Assembly: GCA_964255285.1 (NCBI GenBank)
Contig: CAXUUL010000018.1
Span: 44,152-64,151 of the forward strand
Reading direction: 5' to 3'
DNA length: 20,000 nucleotides
Source: Ionaspis alba
Taxonomy: Eukaryota
Below are positions 3,903 to 20,000 of this stretch, piece by piece. The position numbers and the translations under genes are program-made. The notes below the pieces were generated by a model, which saw only the letters and a list, made by a program, of their open reading frames with translations, ran no database searches and was not told the DNA's origin. Each line of letters begins with the position of its first letter. The stretch's first letter is position 1.

Positions 3903-6900
3903 TCAAAAGCCTGACTTGCGGATAAGCTTCTTCTTTTTGAACGTACCTGGACGAGCTCCTTTAGACCCAGCTTCTGGCTGACTTTGGGTCATAAAGGCCT
4001 GGACCGACTGACTGCTACTCGCTACCACAGCAGACTGGCTTCCGAAGACTCTGGAAGGAATTGTTTGTGAAGCCAACGCTTGAGAATTCTGGCGCTGCCT
4101 TTTTTTAGTCATCCTTCTTTGCAGCTTGGACATGAATGCATTTTCAACACCGTCTTTCTCATCTAGAGACGATAACGCGCGGTGCGTCTTGTTCCAGTCG
4201 TATGCTTCAGGATTTTGACCCACTTGCCAGTGGCTGACTAGCTTTGACATCGATTCGGACAACGACGGAGGGGTTTCTAGTGAAGTCAAGCGTTTCAGTC
4301 GGTCATACGACAAATCCATCTCGGCAGTGTGCGAGGACATCGACGGCTGCGAATGCAACGAAGGTGTCGCTTCGGGTGTTGGCAGCATATTTTGGGATTG
4401 TTGGGGGGTTGTACTAGTCGATAGTGGTTCTGAAAGGTGGGGAAAGAACTTGTCCTTGAGAATCTCTTTGCCTTTCCCGGTTGGAGCTCCAATTGAAGCC
4501 TTGCGTCTCAGTGGTAAGTCATGTCGTCTCCCACTCATGTCCCGAGTTGATGAATTAGTATCGAGCTCCTGGCACATACTTGGACCACGTTGCAGTCCGT
4601 GTGAGGCAAGATAGATTTGTACAGCAGCCTTCCTTATTTCCTTTTCTAGCTTTACTCGTGCTCGACTCGGCACGGCATGAGAAATTCCACTCATCCATAG
4701 ATCAAGGAGATTTTCGTATACGTCCATGAGCATTGTGCTTTCTTCGCGATCCACAGAGTTTCGGTTGTAATCGATTGCTGCAGGGGTTCGCAGGGGGTGA
4801 ACTCTCAATCGATCTTCCAGATCATGCTCCGAGTCGTCACACGAGGGCAGGGGTTTACCGTCCTCATATACGTAGTCAAAAAGTGTTTGTAGCATTTGTG
4901 AGCCGTTCCCAACATCATTAAAAGAACTCTCGGGTAGGATTTCGAACCTGTTGAAGTTATCAGTGTGGAATGTATAACTTGTGAGCGTAGCCTACGTACA
5001 GTGGCCGAATCCCTTTTCCTTGAGAACTCATGGAGCCAATAACGTCCTCCACTAACTGTTCGGAAGACTCGGGAGCCTTGATATCTGATTGCGTAGACAC
5101 CTTTCGATCTTCGATCTGATCCACCAACCATTCAAGTTGGGAAGTCCTCGAGTTGGCTGCAGTTAAATACAAACGCTGTCCAGCTCGTGTATGTCCCCTC
5201 AATGGCTCAGTCTCCATGTGATCATCTACATGCTCATAAGCTTGATCTGGTACCACAAAATCGTCATCAACTACTCTCGCAGCGCTCTTCGATATCTTGG
5301 CTTTGTCGATGCGATTGCATGTTTGATGCTGCACGTTATCTCCTCGCGCGGCCCAAACGTACACGTGCTCATGAACTGACAAATCGTGGTACAAGGCGAA
5401 GAACTTGAAAATCGAGGTTTCTGCTCCAGACGAAGAAACTTCATTATCCAGTCCGTGAGCGAAAGATAGGCTGTCTTGATTGAGAGGTAGCACATATAGA
5501 GCAGCCAGTGGGGGTGTGGACTTCGTGGACTGCTCACTCTGCAGTCGGTTTAACGTCACAAGAGATGGGTCTGAGATGGATTGAGGTAGGTTCGAAGTGG
5601 ACGACTGAGTGAAGGTATAGCATGTCACGATGCTCGAGATTCTGCTATAAAGAAACGCAAAGGCTACTTAAGCCAATTAGCCAGCTTCCAGCAGAACGAA
5701 CATGAATCTCTATACCCTCCACGCTACCTGTCAAGTGCAACTGCAAACTGATATCGTGCGGGCTGCGAAAATGCCTCCCGGAGAGTAGAGTTTTATCAGT
5801 TGCGTGACCGAACCTTGCGCTTTCCTCTTCATACGATGATACATTCAGCCAGAAGATACGAACCGTCGTTAGTACGAAGATCTGAGAAACATTAAAAGGA
5901 CTTCTCCTGATGTCGAGAACCCAATCTGACACTGAATCGAGATCAAGCAGCGAGGACTTTAGCAGTCGCGAAGGACTTGTGGTACAATACAGAGCTACAG
6001 TCCTTCGACTTGCTGCCACGATAGTAGCACCGTTCCGTACCCAGATGACAGTGCCCCACCCGTCCGCGTTGTCGATAGTCTCATCCGCCTTGTCAGGTCG
6101 CAAGACTTGTCCTGATGATCCAGCCTGTAAAGACCAGAAGCTTGAGTTGTTTGCACGGTCCTCTATAGTCCAAGTAGACCAACAACCTTCAGCATCCAGA
6201 ATCGCAAACTGACGAGCATTCCATGGATTAAACGCAAAGTCAACATGGGCTGCTCCTCCAGTGCGTGTTGTAGTCAAAGCCAGAACACAATTGGCGTCTA
6301 AACGCGATGGCTCGTTGTGTAATCTTTGTCCAGAACTTCCAACATGTGTATTCGAATACACAGGCACGACTCTCATTACGGGTTTAAGGATTGATATGAC
6401 GCCGGGTGCTCTGATGGCAAGCCAGTCGCCTGATTCGTCGCCTCCTTCGGAGAAGCATATCTGTTGAATAGAAGTCCCCATCCCTGCCCATAACACTTGC
6501 TCTGTGCGCACGAATGTTGGAGTGGAAAACTGGGCTCCTTCATGGCCCTGCCACTTGAGTGGCTTTTCGTTTAGGCTTATAAGCCGAACGACATCTGCAT
6601 TTGGCCCACTAGCAACAGCAGCAATATCAATGGTCTTCTTGTGGTAGCCTCCTATTTCTAGTTTTGCGGCCTTCCCTAATGCGAGAAGTGTAGTTGTCAG
6701 GGGATCTGTCAGGATTGTTGCATCAATGACAGCCTCAGACACTTGAGCTAGTTGAGGCAGGAGAAAAGTTGCAGGAGCCAGGTATGGATTTACTGCAACA
6801 AGATCTTGTATTTGTGTAATTCGATCGGCTGCTCGATAGGTGGCACGTGGGGCTTGGGGTAGCCTTGTTGGATTGACTGTGACAATTGGTTCTCCGATTG

Positions 6901-7068
6901 CTCTCAAGGACCAACCTGCTCATAGTCAGTGGATTATCGTGGGAGTCCAGACATTCAGTACTCACGTATATGTCTAGAGCGATTGAAAAGCCATTGCTCC
7001 TTCTCTCCATCATAGACAGCTTCGCCCAAATGACCGTAGGAAAGGTCACTTGGGTTTACTCTGATCAT
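3903..7068 (-). CDS. RRN6: RNA polymerase I core factor subunit Rrn6 (TAF1C-like), ~1003 aa
   Basis: Exons 7068-6966, 6915-5716, 5663-5000, 4947-3903 (3012 nt, in frame) joined by GT-AG introns of 50, 52 and 52 nt. N-terminal DLSYGHLGEAVYD..W.F, beta-propeller-like HVDFAFNPWNARQFAILDAEGCWSTW, LYSR, and C-terminal HWQVGQNPEAYDW ... SQ-rich ... KKKKLIRKSGF all match my recollection of filamentous-fungal Rrn6. Confidence 0.85.
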
Positions 7069-7416
7069 TCGGTCGCCGTCTCTGTCGAACTTTGGTCCTG
7101 GAGGTTGAATTGGCGAGGATAGGCATTGTAGGAAAGTACAGTATAAAGTTGTAGACTATAGAGCATAAAGCTGGTCACCGTCTACCATAAGTGATGGTCT
7201 TTTGTGATATATCACGTAGTCTTGTAGCAAACTTCACGCTGATCTTGGCGCGTCCAGTGCTGCACAGACCAACGCTTATCTACAAGCAGCTATTGCGCTA
7301 AGAAGTCCAAAGTAAACAAAAGAATCCGGGCCAACTTCGACCGCAACGACATTCACCACAACATCGCCCACATTCGTCATCCCTACCACATATCTTAGGC
7401 TTCAATTTTTCAGCCG
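7069..7416. promoter_or_regulatory. Short divergent promoter between RRN6 and SPC25, with a forkhead-type site and an MCB-like core
   Basis: About 350 bp between head-to-head start codons. GTAAACAAA at 7312-7320 and GGCGCGTC at 7247-7254. Confidence 0.45.
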
Positions 7417-7431
7417 ATGCTGAGGCCAACA

Positions 7432-8268
7432 ATGGCGACTCTTTTCGAACCTTCGCTCTCAACGAGCACAATGCGCCAGTCTCTCTCGGCAACGACGACT
7501 TCAGCGGCTGACTCGCTCCCAAACATCAATTTTGGCTTCGATGAACTTCGCGATCGTATGGCCCGCTTCACAAACCGCTTCGACAATTTCATCGCCGAAG
7601 GTCGTAAACGTGTCCTCGAAGAGCGTAATCACTTCCGGCTGAATGTTGCTGAGCTGCACGGTATGTCGGCCTCGGCCCTTCCTTCTGGCTTCCACAGTGG
7701 ACTGACTTGTACCCTCATTGCAGAGGATCAGAAAACGAAAAAGCGTGACCTTGAAATCCTCTCGCAGAAAGCTACCACGCACAATCATGTCCTCGCCAAA
7801 GAAGCTGCCGAAACGGAGGAAATGCACTCGGCTATCGACGCTATCACGATCCAACACACCGCGCGGTCCCATCACCGAGATACGCTTCTCGGGCAGAAAG
7901 CCGCTGTCCAAAAACAAATCGCCGCGCGTCTCGACGTTCAGCGGCAGCACGCAGCCCAATTTGATTTTCAAGCAGCGTTCAATGGACCGGAGCTGGACTT
8001 CTGGGTCGAGTACTTGGGCCTTCGGATCGAAGGCGCCGGAATGGCTGATCGATTGAAGTTCGTCTTCACACAGATTGACGATAGGGATTGGGAGAGAGAA
8101 GCTTGGTTTGAGCTTTGTACCGAGCGGAGGGAGTATGAAGTATTGCATTGGGCACCTAAAGTCGAGAAGGAGAGGGTGGACGAAGTAGTAGAGAGATTGA
8201 ATGAGGGACGAGATCTAGGAATTTTTTTGAAGAGGATGAGAGAACTCTTTGTGGAGGCAACGAGATAA
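7432..8268 (+). CDS. SPC25: Ndc80 kinetochore complex subunit Spc25 (~257 aa)
   Basis: Exons 7432-7660 and 7724-8268, with intron GTATGT...ACTGAC...CAG at 7661-7723. Sequence LPNINFGFDELRDRMARFT.RFD.FI..GRKRVLEERN, then a coiled coil, then RWD-type domain ELDFWVEYLGLRIEGAGMADRLKFVFTQID...FLKRMRELF. An alternative in-frame ATG lies at 7417. Confidence 0.92.
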   Translation: MATLFEPSLSTSTMRQSLSATTTSAADSLPNINFGFDELRDRMARFTNRFDNFIAEGRKRVLEERNHFRLNVAELHGMSASALPSGFHSGLTCTLIAEDQKTKKRDLEILSQKATTHNHVLAKEAAETEEMHSAIDAITIQHTARSHHRDTLLGQKAAVQKQIAARLDVQRQHAAQFDFQAAFNGPELDFWVEYLGLRIEGAGMADRLKFVFTQIDDRDWEREAWFELCTERREYEVLHWAPKVEKERVDEVVERLNEGRDLGIFLKRMRELFVEATR

Positions 8269-8763: not shown

Positions 8764-11700
8764 TCACAGCTCGTCATCTTGATCGATGTCCGCTGGTTTG
8801 AGCAAGCCCCCGACCTTCTTGGCTCGTTCCATTTCAGCGTCTTTCACAGCCCTTTGTTCAAGATCACGATCCTCCGCGAAAAGTTCAGCGTTGTCACCAG
8901 AGAACTCTTTCAAACCAATCAAGAAGTCGCGAAGATTGGTCTTGAATCTGTTGATGTCGCTCTGATAGGTAAACAGCCCCTCAATGAACTGCTGCACTTG
9001 TATTCTGTATTTGTTAGCGCAGCCATGTAGAATCTTGGAACTTCAATCACGTACGGTTGAAGATTTGGGAATGCGGTGTGTAGAAGGTTTCCGACGAATC
9101 CGTATAGGAAGTCTTTGTTAGAAGTACCAGGCTGGGCTTGTGCTGGTGTGTAGATCGGCTGATTGATTTTCCCCGATTCGATGAAGTAGAACATTCTCGC
9201 CAATAGCATGGATTGTGTCTTGAAACCTAAAGAACTGTAAGCATTTTTACCAGTTTGTGATAGTCGCCGTACTGACCAGCTTTGTGATCGGTGTCTGTAA
9301 GCACGAAGAACACATCCTGCAAAATAGAGATGAAGAACTGCTGGAAGAAGGCGGTCGATGTCTGCTGGTCAGTCTCGGCCATGTTGTCGATGAGTTCGAT
9401 GCACATTGTGAGACCAGTGTTCTCGACTTCACGATTGTCGTGCTTGCTAGCCCATAAACAGGAGTCGATGACAAACTTGAACTGACGCTGATCAAGCTTC
9501 AGAAGTGCCGGGAAACAGTAGAGATTAATTGCTTTCAGAAGCTTGAAGAATTCGACGCGATGCTCTGGGTATTCTGAGAAGTCCTTGTTTATCATCTCCA
9601 AGGTACACTCAAAAACGTTCTCCATGATGGTAGGGACTTTGTCTTCCATCAAGCTCTATTTACGCGTCAGCGGGTGATTATGTTGAGTCGATCGTCGGTT
9701 CTGACCGAGTGCTTGGAGGTCCGAGGGGTCCAACGTACATGAAGCTTAGCAATGATGGTTGTCATAACATTCAGAACTTCCGCGTCACGCGCGTCTGGAA
9801 CATTGCGATTGTAATCCACCAGTACCGCCTCCAAAAGAGGAGGAACGATATTAGAATTGACCATGTCGAGGTCGTCGGCCTTCTGAACGTAGCTGTCAAT
9901 GAGCTTTAGAATCTCTTTCTTGATCGTCCGTAGTCCGCGGATTCTAGGTGTTTTCGTGGCGATAGTACCTGTAACGGGAAGTCAACCACGGTCTTGTAGT
10001 TTTTGCCGAAGAAGCAGTAATAACCTTCCCTCTGCACGCAATCTGATATCATTGTACTTGTAGCTCGATACATCGACAGCATGTCAAGATAAATACGCCC
10101 GATCTGGGGGTAGAAGTAGCTTCCGATCGATGAACAGGCTGCAACATTGGTCTTCATGATATTGCCGACTATCTTGATGGTCTCGCCATCCTGGAGAATG
10201 GATGGATCCTGGTTGGCAGAAGAAATGATCTGATCCCACTGAAAACGGGATCAGTCTCTCACTTTAATGACAGGTCGGGCGTACTTACTGCCTGGTTTGG
10301 ATAGGACATCAATTCTCCAATCAACCTCTCCTGGGTGCCTTTCTGGCCTTGAGCTGAGATCATGTACCCACAAGCTTCATAGAATGTATGCACTTGCTGA
10401 GGTGATAAGTCGCAAGTGATCTTCTGCATGTTACGGACGATTTCCTCGATGAATGGCTCGCTCTCGCCGGGTTGCAAAGCAACGAAATGCCTTTTGCATT
10501 TGTTTGCAATCTTGATGAACGTATCGCAGGCCATATCTTGAACACCTGTAAAGATTTAGTATCTTGGAAAATGGGGAGATATCTCAAAAGGATGCAATGA
10601 ACCTTCGTGCGTTTCGTGCATGAACTCGAAAAGTTTATTGACCACAGTCTTCAGAAACTTCCAGTGAGCTTTGAGAAACCGGGGATACTGGCCAACAATG
10701 TACATGATATTGCTCGCAACAACCGCCTTGTTGTCCTTGCCACGCTTCGCTTCGGTCAAGCCCAGCAGGTCTTTGATAACTGTAACCAGGAAGCGTTTCT
10801 CCGTTTCCTCATTCATTGCCCCGGAAATCGAACCGATAGCCCAGCAGAGGGTGTTGCATCTCTGCCAGGACCATTCTGAGTCATCCACCTGTCGGGCGAG
10901 CTTCTCCGACATGATGTTCTCCGTATCGACCACATCTAGGTGAGTGAGGTAGACTAAGACTTCGCGGCTGGTCTTGTACAGCTGGATCGTGTCACTCTCC
11001 TTAACAAACTCACGGACGATCTCCCCCTCATCGTTCTCTACTATCAATACTTCCTCTGGTCGTACCATGTTCTCGATCATTACCAACCGGAGGTGCGAGA
11101 GAACCTCCTCGTATTTGTGCTTACGTAGTGGATAGTTGGCAAGAACATTCGGATGCGGGGCACCACCATTTGATAACCCACTAACGCTCATATTGATCAG
11201 TGGATTGATGTCTGTGATGGGCAACTGTTGCATCTCCTCATAGAGCTCTTGCACAAGTTTGGTCCAGTATTCCAGGCATATCTTGAATATCTCGCGGTCT
11301 TCAATCTGTGATATTCGTATGAGATAGAAGTGGGAGTGGGTCAGGTAATCGCGATTGGGGAGGTTCTCGATGAGCTAAACATGTTAACCAAAAGTCGTTC
11401 GACGTTCAAGATCTGAGACCCTACGTTGATGTGCATTGTGAAGAAATTACAGAGAAATAGAGCTAGGTTCTGCACGAACTCTTGATCCCTCGAATTGCTC
11501 TTAGGATATGTATCCTTGAGACTCATGCTTAGCGGAATGGTCTTGGAGACAGAAGTTACCACTTCCGTGAACATCTGTATGAGCTTCTCATCATAGGCAT
11601 ATTGCGGCCCAATCTGGACGCCAGCAATTTCTGTGAGGCACTTCAAGGTGATATTCCGGAACTCGGGCTGCTCGAGGAATCTGGTCCTCAGTGTGTCGAT

Positions 11701-12602
11701 GATCGGTGTCTCGAAGATATAACCCAGAGGAATCCAATTTAGAAATCGAAGCAGTGTCTCCAAGGTGGCCCTGACCAAGCTCGTTTGATTGGCTGTGTTC
11801 AAGACTTCCGAGCAGAGTCCAAAGATAGCCGAGAACTCGGTAGACATGGTGTTCTTCAAGTTTTTGGTCTTTGCTGAGGTCATCTGGTCCTGCGAAAAGT
11901 CGAAAACCTCTTCCGACAACAACCGGAGGATGGCCATGTTGTTCTCGCAAACGGTCAAGTTCGTATGACAGGAGCTAATGATTTCATTGATGAATGTTGG
12001 CCAGTTGTGGGGCCATTCCTGTTTGAGGATAGACACAAGAACCAGATTCAACTTGTTCAGAAAGGTTCGCTGGGTCTTAAGGCTCTCTTCAGTCTCCGAG
12101 GTCTGTACGATGAAACTGACGACAAAGTTTCTAATGCCTGCCGAACGAAAATTATCAGCAGAGATAGCATAGGTATGTGGGGGCATTCTCACCTTGGCAT
12201 TGATCTCGTGGTAAGACCTTCCATCTAGTCATGATCACGCTATCCAGGACTTGTAGACCAAGATCTGTCTACCCTTAGCACTGGACGAAGTTGATCGTCG
12301 ACCAACACATACATTTGGTCTGAGGATATGTAGCCTCTTGTAGGATTTTGTCCACCAGTAGCCATGCGTCCGGGTCCTCCTTGAACTATGATTTGAAGTG
12401 GTATTAGATAACGCCATAGATGGAAGGAATGTAGTCATACCTGGTTCATCGCTGCCTGAGCTTGTTTTTGCTTTAACACAGGCGTCAGTGCTTATTGTAC
12501 GAAACTAGAGATGTGTTATCAGGGTATAGTCCCTACCGCATCACCACGGCTCTCGTAGAACAACCGGACAGTGGTGTCCAGCTCCTCCACAGACATCACC
12601 AT
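8764..12602 (-). CDS. CRM1: Exportin-1 (Crm1/Xpo1/KapK), 1072 aa
   Basis: 12 exons: 12602-12537, 12470-12441, 12385-12313, 12264-12193, 12137-11425, 11374-10603, 10545-10289, 10238-10025, 9968-9739, 9655-9277, 9226-9055, 9004-8764 (3219 nt, open frame). Hallmarks: [103 protein letters not shown]. Confidence 0.98.
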
Positions 12603-18200: not shown

Positions 18201-19355
18201 TCACATGAAATCATCCTCATCCCAGCCCCCTTGATTTCCCACTCCCTCGCTCTCTACCCGTCCCTTCCCGTACAGCGTCTCCCAATCCCGTTCCTTTCTC
18301 TCCTTCTCGTCCTTCCTCTCCCGTAGTATTCGCGCCTCCTCTTTTCGTCGCTTCTGCGTATCCGNNNNNNNNNNNNNNNNNNNNNNNNNNNNNNNNNNNN
18401 NNNNNNNNNNNNNNNNNNNNNNNNNNNNNNNNNNNNNNNNNNNNNNNNNNNNNNNNNNNNNNNNTCCTTCCTCTCCCGTAGTATTCGCGCCTCCTCTTTT
18501 CGTCGCTTCTGCGTATCCGCATTTATCGCCTGCCGCTTAGATGCCAGTTGTGCGTCACGCTCTTCCTGGAGGTGGGTCGTTGAGTGGGGAGGCGGGATCT
18601 CCGTGCGGGTCTTTTGCAGCCGATTGAGAGGAGGGTTGAGGCGTGTGGGCACGAGAACACGTTTTGTCTGGTGGGAGAATGCGTCAGTACAATGGCGATA
18701 GCGGCAACATCACACACAGATACAACGGGGCCGAGGGACCAACTGACCTTTTTCTGGTCGTGGAAGCCGACTTGGCCGACAGCCATGCTGCCGTCCTTTT
18801 TGAGGTTCGACCATGGTGTGTAAATAATTGTCACGTTGTCTTTCTTGTTGCCTACAGCGCAGTAGTGAGTCTCTCGTGGTTACTCGTTGTAGCTGGGAAG
18901 TTGCGAAGACAAAGAGATCGAGGGCGAATAGTGTTTACCTTCAATGGAGTTCGCCTTTGTCAGCTGTGCGCAGTCTTCCAACAGGTCCTTGGATATATCG
19001 TCCCATGACTGTCCCGGATTAAGGCGTAGGTAGATATGAGCGCTAGAGAGATTGTCCGCGTGGAACTGTCAATCCTTTTAGCATAATTTGGGTGCATGCG
19101 TTAGGAGGAGGCCATACCCTGCATATTAGAATCAGTATTTAGGCAATTTCTAATAGAGTTGCTAGCTGCGATACCATACATCCTCTTCCCAGCCGTACTT
19201 GATCAGCTCCTCGTCTATGGAATCATACCGATTAGCTAGATGTGTATTGGGAGAGGCCTCTTGGTGTATGAAGAGGACGCACTCTCCGTTTTATCTTTGC
19301 CCACGTAGATAGTCGCGGGTGGGGAGACAACGGTGGAGGTAAAGTGATAAACCAT
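18201..19355 (-). CDS. JLP2: CCDC25/Jlp2-type NFACT-R domain protein (~218 aa after closing the gap)
   Basis: Exons 19355-19283, 19214-19175, 19118 (1 nt), 19065-18939, 18851-18748, 18667-18201. Translation: [53 protein letters not shown]...[43 protein letters not shown]...charged coil...WDEDDFM*. These are the family's typical motifs. Confidence 0.92.
18310..18519. other. Scaffold gap (100 N, 18365-18464) flanked by an exact 55-bp direct duplication
   Basis: 18310-18364 is identical to 18465-18519. Collapsing the two copies restores a continuous JLP2 reading frame. Confidence 0.9.
19118..19118 (-). other. Predicted 1-nt microexon (G) between two canonical introns (19174-19119 and 19117-19066)
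   Basis: Minus strand: GAT GTA TG|gtatcg...ttctaatatgcag|G|gtatgg...tgctaaaaggattgacag|TTC CAC. The single G completes the TGG (Trp) codon of DVWFH. Confidence 0.8.
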
Positions 19356-19534
19356 GCTAGCGAAGAGATCAATGCTCTGTCAGAAGTGGTAGTACTTAGA
19401 TAGAAGTCGAATGGAAGAGCGACTGATATACCGCGGGATTTTGGCAGAATAGCTATCTATGGCGGTGAAGGTCGAACCTTAGGAGATCTAGCCCACTGGG
19501 GAAGAGGTCGTCTGGGTTTTTCTATTCTATCCTG

Positions 19535-20000
19535 AACTAAAATCAATATTACCATACACGACCTTATTTTTTTTAGATATTCAATTAAAAATCATAACCT
19601 TACCCTTTTTAGATATCTAATTATAAAAATTATAATAAATTTTTGTTGACGCGTTGTATAAATTTTTTAATATTTTTCGTTTTTTTTTTTTTTTTAAAAT
19701 CTTGTTGTTGTCGTCTTTTTGTTATCGTCGTTTTTATTTTATTTTTTAATTTATTTACTTGGTTGTTTTTTTCGAAATTTTATTTTTCGTTTTTTTACCG
19801 TCGTTATATCGATTTTTTTCAAAAATATTTTTACGGATATTTTGCCCGTCCGGAAACGATTTTTTAAATTAATAAAATCTATATTTCAATTAACGTTTAT
19901 GAAATAAAAAAAATATTTTTTTTATTTTAATAACGTTTGGTCGTTTTACGAAAAAACTCCCCCTACATTTAATATTTTAAAAAAAAAAACGGTTTATTAT
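19535..20000. repeat. AT-rich degenerate segment, probably a RIP-type mutated transposon or repeat relic (runs off the window end)
   Basis: Abrupt shift from about balanced GC to extremely AT-rich sequence, with long T runs and many of the surviving C/G bases in CpG. No credible ORF, and the element family cannot be identified. Confidence 0.6.

Follow-up and report, generated by a model that had tools for sequence, protein, structure and literature searches.

A constitutive exon of one nucleotide, lying between two GT-AG introns and obscured by a mis-annotated complementary DNA (cDNA), has been described in the APC11 gene of Arabidopsis thaliana, where the authors argue for intron definition and for successive, recursive-like removal of the two flanking introns (Guo and Liu 2015, PMC4674806). 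The subject here is a similar arrangement in a fungal gene. It was met in a stretch of 20,000 nucleotides (nt) of DNA from Ionaspis alba (GenBank assembly GCA_964255285.1, contig CAXUUL010000018.1, positions 44,152 to 64,151 of the forward strand), which at its full length is referred to as the window and in which all coordinates are counted from the first letter. On the minus strand of the window lies a gene for CCDC25/Jlp2, a protein with an NFACT-R domain, and its mature mRNA very probably keeps a lone G, at position 19118, as a one-nucleotide exon between two abutting U2-type GT-AG introns, here called A and B. That G is the third base of TGG, the codon for a conserved Trp.

Known one-base exons and related intron types

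As its report sets them out, the APC11 exon differs from that of CCDC25/Jlp2 in several respects. It is an A, its upstream intron is 333 nt long, and GFP reporters and mutagenesis were used to prove its splicing; which base stood there made no difference to splicing, whereas in CCDC25/Jlp2 the base must be G for Trp to be encoded. An earlier reading of the window, made from the sequence only, had cited APC11 as the known one-nucleotide exon, and this needs widening to plants more generally, to Coprinopsis cinerea with its 13 cases and to the CYP621A genes of Fusarium. Microexons of 1 nt have been recovered from transcript data in plants (PMC8831610), and a long-read annotation of C. cinerea has 13 one-nucleotide exons, each in a different gene (PMC12230235); as presented in these two accounts, such exons recur, fungi included, and form a conserved class with widespread mis-annotation, and in this the CCDC25/Jlp2 exon is like them.

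The P450 genes of the CYP621A subfamily in Fusarium have a one-nucleotide exon that its authors count as the first known from a fungus and the second altogether (Nelson and Syed 2026, PMC12940212). Going by their description, the likeness to CCDC25/Jlp2 extends to an ascomycete nuclear gene, the pentamer AGGGT, a G that completes a codon within a conserved motif, automated annotation that misses the exon, and recognition of the exon from out-of-phase intron boundaries. The differences are that the described CYP621A exon belongs to one P450 subfamily of one genus, with 20-24 genes and with read support from the Sequence Read Archive, whereas the CCDC25/Jlp2 exon belongs to a conserved single-domain gene, is found in 43 distinct metagenome sequences that resemble several classes of Pezizomycotina, and is known from DNA in the window's fungus. 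The CCDC25/Jlp2 exon joins an already published class of one-base exons and is not a new kind. In the full-text literature searched, which covers few subscription journals, no one-base exon in CCDC25/Jlp2 was found, and the supplements of the Coprinopsis and plant studies may list an orthologue.

Two other intron types need to be kept in mind. In stwintrons an internal intron interrupts the donor, the branch site or the acceptor of an external intron, and the external intron becomes functional only after excision of the internal one (Fekete et al. 2017, PMC5587772). Likenesses drawn from the same account are the presence of two intron units at one place in genes of Pezizomycotina, sequential splicing, and the occurrence in related species of single introns at an identical site or shifted by one base. 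As stwintrons are described there, however, nothing is kept between their units; in CCDC25/Jlp2 the introns are both complete, their GT and AG ends are intact and one base is retained between them, so that the arrangement, as had been said of it from the outset, is not a stwintron.

A ratchet point of recursive splicing has the form AG/GT and is an exon of zero length at which an intron is removed stepwise. It is like the CCDC25/Jlp2 site in having a 3′ splice site followed directly by a 5′ splice site and in stepwise removal; the difference is that no base is kept there, whereas CCDC25/Jlp2 keeps exactly one G. A central AGGT is present in 1 of the 44 distinct sequences compared below, and retention of no base at all would shift the frame.

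The lone G and the reading frame

Read along the minus strand, the upstream exon ends ...GATGTATG (also ...GAGGATGTATG at 19175), and is followed by intron A, the G at 19118, intron B and then TTCCACGCGGAC. The last bases of that exon are GAG GAT GTA TG, the final two being bases 1 and 2 of the Trp codon. Intron A (19174-19119, 56 nt) has the sequence GTATCG...TTCTAATATGCAG, with the donor GTATCG, the branch-like motifs CTGAT and CTAAT and a CAG acceptor. Intron B (19117-19066, 52 nt) has the sequence GTATGG...GCTAAAAGGATTGACAG, with the donor GTATGG, the branch-like motif GCTAAA and a CAG acceptor directly 5′ of TTC, and is in phase 0. At 19121-19112 acceptor, base and donor stand together as CAG/G/GTATGG. 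The coordinates given for both introns and for the lone G in the sequence-only reading were reproduced exactly on the minus strand.

A frame test was made of every reading of this region. With both introns out and the G kept, the product is ..EEDVWFHADN.. and the Trp is retained. A single intron from TG/ to the acceptor at 19066 gives ..EEDVCSTRT.. and then a stop, removal of intron A alone gives ..DVWGMASS before a stop, and removal of intron B alone gives ..DVWYRS before a stop. Use of the upstream donor GAT/GTATGG (19179) with the 19066 acceptor keeps the frame at the cost of Val-Trp (V-W). It had been claimed that keeping the G yields D-V-W-F-H, that the one-intron reading and retention of intron B both shift the frame, and that the upstream donor stays in frame without V-W, all of which proved right. 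The two-intron model that keeps the G is shown to be the only canonical solution with both the frame and the Trp intact: AG, G and GT abut, both introns are complete, and the base is needed for the frame and for a conserved residue.

A sequencing error at the junction had been named as a possible refutation, and the underlying DNA was checked. A 1120-nt Logan contig of run X1, with a depth of 64.7, is collinear with the window over 18621-19560, introns included; it has one differing letter (18912) and no gaps, and is identical at the junction. Run X1 is possibly from the same sample as the assembly, and its agreement rules out an assembler slip without being that of an independent isolate. Runs X2 and X3, which are of other organisms in the same study, match the exons and have, between them, 199, 259 or 325 letters in place of the window's 193, 185 or 316, so that in relatives, too, the site of the one-base exon holds an insert about twice the size of an intron.

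Orthologous loci and three states of the site

A scan of metagenome contigs with an alignment seeded by the window exon gave 286 relatives, of which the best 80 were analysed; at each locus the DNA lying between the Asp and Phe codons was examined. Three states of the site are found among these 80. The twin layout ..GTNTG/GT...AG/G/GT...AG/TTC is present at 58 loci (56 by pattern, together with L028 and L061 by eye). Five loci (L019-L022 and L029), with Aureobasidium-like proteins, have a single intron of 59-61 nt, TGG/GT...AG/TTC, at the position of intron B. At the remaining 17 the site is intron-free; 16 of these have introns elsewhere and so are genomic, and the other, L080, is cDNA-like. 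No locus with intron A alone is present among the 80. Of the 63 loci with an intron here, 58 thus have AG/G/GT and five have the single intron. Such an orthologue alignment had been proposed as a test, to see whether AG/G/GT is conserved or whether relatives have a single intron at one of the two adjacent positions.

When identical sequences are collapsed, 43 distinct twin sequences remain, and the window brings the number to 44, all of which have homologous introns A and B on either side of a lone G. Every one of the 44 has a central AGGGT flanked on both sides by 40 nt or more, against 2.5% of interior shuffles, and of the central alternatives AGGT occurs in one sequence, AGTGT in one, and AGAGT and AGCGT in none. 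The AG/G/GT arrangement is far beyond chance. The intron sequences themselves have diverged; even the closest loci (L023, L067 and L074) can be aligned with the window only over the exons, the start of intron A (GTATC) and AG-G-GTA.

Introns A and B each resemble ordinary short fungal introns. GT..AG ends are present on both in all 44 sequences. Across the orthologues intron A is 45-74 nt long, with a median of 55 nt, and intron B is 49-128 nt, with a median of 55.5 nt. Donor position +5 is G in 31 of 42 A introns and 32 of 42 B introns; the acceptor is YAG in 35 of 42 A introns (AAG in the other 7) and in 42 of 42 B introns; and a branch-like NTRAY is present 4-35 nt from the 3′ end in 33 of 42 and 29 of 42, respectively.

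The alternative to be taken most seriously is a single intron of 114 nt, from the upstream donor GAT/GTATGG (19179) to 19066, whose splicing would produce a protein without V-W. It is in frame, and its GTATGG has a G at +5, unlike the GTATCG of intron A. On the other side stands the Val codon, the third base of which varies among the orthologues (GTC 17, GTG 11, GTT 9 and GTA 4, or 5 with the window), while TG/GT is fixed; a codon that wobbles in this way next to fixed bases points to V-W being coding. The codon is GTC, GTG or GTT in 39 of the 44 distinct sequences, with TGG invariant, and GTCTGG and GTTTGG would be unusual donors under the fungal splice consensus. The 114-nt intron also leaves the invariant central AGGGT unexplained, and it would be the longest intron of the gene.

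Protein evidence and mis-annotation

The top 120 protein matches consist of 66 named public gene models and 54 unnamed open reading frames (ORFs) from contiguous contigs, obtained without gene modelling. Of the named models, 23 keep the Trp at the junction and 18 have D/FH and lack V-W; the other 25 are aberrant there in further ways, through false starts in the +1 frame, exons that are skipped or introns that are read through. The unnamed contig ORFs divide into 26 that have the Trp and 28 that continue through intron B; D/FH occurs in none of them. The 18 named models with a D/FH junction count in favour of the 114-nt intron; against it are the absence of D/FH from all 54 contig ORFs and the existence of ORFs that carry V-W and are otherwise identical to annotations lacking it. 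One such ORF, P0073, of 212 amino acids on a 980-nt Logan contig, agrees at 210 of 210 residues with P0071, an annotated protein of Exophiala dermatitidis, and has V-W in addition. P0058 differs in the same way from the Glonium stellatum annotation P0057, and two annotations within Phyllosticta likewise differ by V-W. In the 90% cluster of P0073, V-W is present in 0 of 12 named Chaetothyriales models versus 3 of 3 unnamed contig ORFs.

Alignment of P0073 to the solved CCDC25 chains 7eof, 8woh and 7eoe is gap-free, EDVWFHVD being matched to EDIWFHVD (E 5e-63). The NFACT-R_1 score is 119.1 bits with V-W and 108.7 bits without it, the full-length relatives scoring 116-119 bits. That the Trp aligns with that of solved CCDC25, and that about 10 bits are forfeited when V-W is left out, are again points against the 114-nt intron, which is an unlikely account of the mature mRNA.

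Every Val codon begins with GT, so an in-frame alternative without V-W exists everywhere, and gene predictors take this donor. Two Fonsecaea models combine the TG/GT donor with a wrong acceptor and have ..DEDVC-AHVYLRL... Gene predictors had earlier been said to miss one-base exons, and 43 of the 66 named models are wrong at the junction; examples of mis-annotation are Ptychographa P0021, Exophiala xenobiotica P0121 and P0128, and Letharia lupina P0138.

Pairing of genomic and transcript-like sequences gave little. Between intron-less and twin loci no transcript and genome pair of one species was found, the best nucleotide identity across the junction being 0.71-0.78. In the comparison of twin-locus peptides with full-length ORFs the only 56-residue match over the junction is that of L006 with P0016, and the tblastn differences elsewhere are those of a close relative, of another species. 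No full-length ORF matching a twin locus at 97% or higher identity was found.

Weighing the alternatives

Retention of the lone G between two abutting canonical introns, completing the codon for the conserved Trp, was the core of the sequence-only reading and is strongly supported by the orthologue alignment. Several points nevertheless weigh against it. The runs that cover or match the locus (X1, X2 and X3) are DNA contigs, and the lone G in the mRNA of the window's fungus is predicted from sequence. The intron A donor, GTATCG, is without the usual G at +5, and the overlapping upstream GTATGG looks better as a donor and bounds, with the 19066 acceptor, an in-frame intron of 114 nt; some isoform without V-W may be made in the window's fungus. 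The strict NTRAY search finds a branch-like motif in just the 33 A and 29 B introns mentioned. That relatives with the twin layout give rise to transcript-like ORFs such as P0073 and P0058 is deduced from mis-annotations together with similar metagenome loci, and the taxonomic spread of the metagenome loci is gauged from similarity over an exon of 43 amino acids.

The same mRNA could be produced by a non-standard route, a nested stwintron-like event or an unusual choice of 3′ splice site. Complex nested introns are documented in Pezizomycotina, in the account of stwintrons already cited (PMC5587772), but in CCDC25/Jlp2 the splice signals of each intron are left uninterrupted by the other, full GT..AG ends are present in 44 of 44 sequences and no nested reading gives TGG/TTC, all of which makes such a route improbable. 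It is very improbable that the gene is broken, a pseudogene or decaying copy in which one 109-nt intron, TG/GT..AG/TTC, shifts the frame: the donor of A and the acceptor of B are canonical and the spliceosome could join them, but the downstream exons all have open frames and share 80-88% identity with homologues, with purifying selection evident, and the same layout with conserved exons is found in 43 other distinct sequences. An assembly or sequencing error, with a G missing after TGG or after CAG at 19066, can be given next to no credence even for a draft assembly with a 100-N gap and duplicated flanks in the same gene, as the X1 contig is identical, gap-free and 64.7 deep, and TG/GT and AG/TTC are common to relatives.

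Order of splicing

For the one-base exon to be used, intron definition would operate on each of the two short introns, A and B. The B donor spans AG-G/GT, and U1 bound to it would be unable to share bases at once with the factors that read the A acceptor (AG/G); because the donor region of B (AG-G/GTA) overlaps the acceptor of A (YAG/G), the two sites could hardly be occupied together and the introns would leave successively. Removal of A first would leave TGG/GT and removal of B first would leave YAG/GTTC, either of which would be a normal substrate for the second step. The process would amount to recursive splicing with one base retained, a model already proposed, in the published description, for Arabidopsis APC11 (PMC4674806). 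It is a reasonable inference that the splicing of A and B is obligatorily ordered, with either order possible.

The invariance of the layout suggests that use of the one-base exon is constitutive, with which some skipping is still compatible. If the A donor were joined to the B acceptor, the G would be left out, with a frameshift and an early stop as the result, so any leaky skipping would produce a target for nonsense-mediated mRNA decay (NMD). That skipping of the G might serve as a regulated frameshift and NMD switch is pure speculation.

The gene and its surroundings

The CCDC25/Jlp2 gene extends on the minus strand from 19355 to about 18201, has five introns and encodes a protein with the end GGWDEDDFM. 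Exon 1 (19283-19355) has its ATG at 19355 and an N-terminus that agrees with homologues. Intron 1 (19215-19282) is 68 nt long, GTGCGT...CCATAG, and the joined product is ..KTENEELIK.. as in homologues. Exon 2 (19175-19214), placed by the window sequence and the frame test, precedes intron A, the lone G and intron B. The exon after intron B (18939-19065) encodes the core of the NFACT-R domain and ends ANSIEG; it is supported by Pfam PF05670 and by protein homology, being 80-88% identical to proteins of Lecanoromycetes and others. The NFACT-R_1 (PF05670) match of the exon at 18883-19068 has an E-value of 1.9e-10 and a score of 41.7 bits, which exceeds the gathering cut-off of 29.8 and places the product in the CCDC25/Jlp2 family. 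The best protein matches are CCDC25/DUF814 proteins of the lichen-forming Lecanoromycetes Trapelia, Xylographa and Bacidia, with 86% identity, and there are also matches in other Pezizomycotina. The fungus from which the gene comes is Lecanoromycete-like.

The next intron (18852-18938), of 87 nt, GTAAAC...CTGTAG, joins ..SIEG/NKKDN.. as in homologues. This well-supported intron has a donor, GTAAAC, without the usual G at +5, so weak-looking donors like the GTATCG of intron A are used elsewhere in the gene. It is followed by an exon (18748-18851) that matches PF05670 positions 77-112 and by an 80-nt intron (18668-18747), GTCAGT...ACTGAC...CCACCAG, placed by translation of the joined exons. The last exon (18201-18667) has its stop codon at 18201-18203 and its end, ..GGWDEDDFM, is like that of homologues; it is interrupted at 18365-18464 by a scaffold gap of 100 N. 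About 54 bases (CGGATACGCAGAAGCGACG...GGAAGGA, minus strand) are duplicated on both sides of the gap (about 18310-18520), so overlapping contig ends were probably left unmerged there. Over 18518-18650 run X1 has two alternative contigs of 133 nt that are a few letters apart, which suggests allelic or repeat variation.

The sequence-only reading had regarded 50-57 nt as the intron size typical of the window. This is plausible and was checked in part: in-frame GT-AG candidates of 49-57 nt, which are ab initio and ambiguous, exist for 8 of 10 pairs of CRM1 and Rrn6 ORFs. The other introns of the CCDC25/Jlp2 gene are of 68, 87 and 80 nt.

The neighbours of CCDC25/Jlp2 are ordinary fungal housekeeping genes, accompanied by a weak GPI2-like match. 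Rrn6, on the minus strand, has its beta-propeller, helical bundle and K-rich domains over 3906-6919, Spc25 is on the plus strand at 7399-8265, and CRM1/exportin-1, with several short introns, is on the minus strand at about 8900-12230. The region 5′ of the CCDC25/Jlp2 gene (19600-20000) is very A+T-rich, with long A and T runs, and the G+C content is 0.35 for 19001-20000 versus about 0.48-0.56 elsewhere; it may be a RIP-like or AT-isochore border or just the promoter.

Origin and spread

The affinity of the metagenome loci was taken from identity over the 43-amino-acid exon to named proteins and is approximate, the best tblastn bit score being too noisy because of fused or overlapping models. 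By this measure twin loci reach 41/43 with Chaetothyriales, 41/43 and 40/43 with Glonium and Lepidopterella (Dothideomycetes), 40/43 with Aspergillus and Talaromyces, 39/43 and 38/43 with Letharia and Cladonia, and, weakly, 38/43 with Orbilia. If these affinities hold, the twin state would be old in Pezizomycotina. The Aureobasidium-like single intron would most simply be explained by precise loss of A; the loci with intron B only fit intron A having been precisely lost or never gained. An origin of A as a recent tandem duplicate of B was considered and rejected, since the score of the global alignment of the two was reached by 536 of 2000 full shuffles and by 865 of 2000 interior shuffles.

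A broader reading is that the one-base exon is ancient and constitutive across several classes of Pezizomycotina, kept for hundreds of millions of years by the need for the G of an invariant Trp codon, with obligatory two-step splicing and with the loci having intron B only derived by loss of A. The classes meant are those resembled by the loci, namely Lecanoromycetes, Chaetothyriales, Eurotiales, Dothideomycetes and perhaps Orbiliomycetes. This combined reading is offered tentatively, its chances falling a little short of even.

Significance

The one-base exon of CCDC25/Jlp2 is shared widely and is no peculiarity of a single genome. It stands out for how broadly it is conserved in a housekeeping gene, for the three states of its site that exist side by side in nature and for the amount of mis-annotation that it causes. 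Structural or functional readings of fungal CCDC25/Jlp2 that start from wrong entries, which make up 43 of the 66 named models among the closest matches, inherit the error. The short list of one-base exons is extended to a conserved gene in which dozens of independent sequences provide comparative proof without RNA. As the site exists in nature with no intron, with one and with the twin introns, the origin and loss of one-base exons are directly testable. Should laboratory moulds prove to have the layout, ordinary genetics could be used to test in which order the introns are removed and how far the spliceosome tolerates abutting sites, and if the exon is indeed ancient, CCDC25/Jlp2 would be a natural and universal test case, in tractable moulds, of how an intron-defining spliceosome deals with splice sites one base apart.

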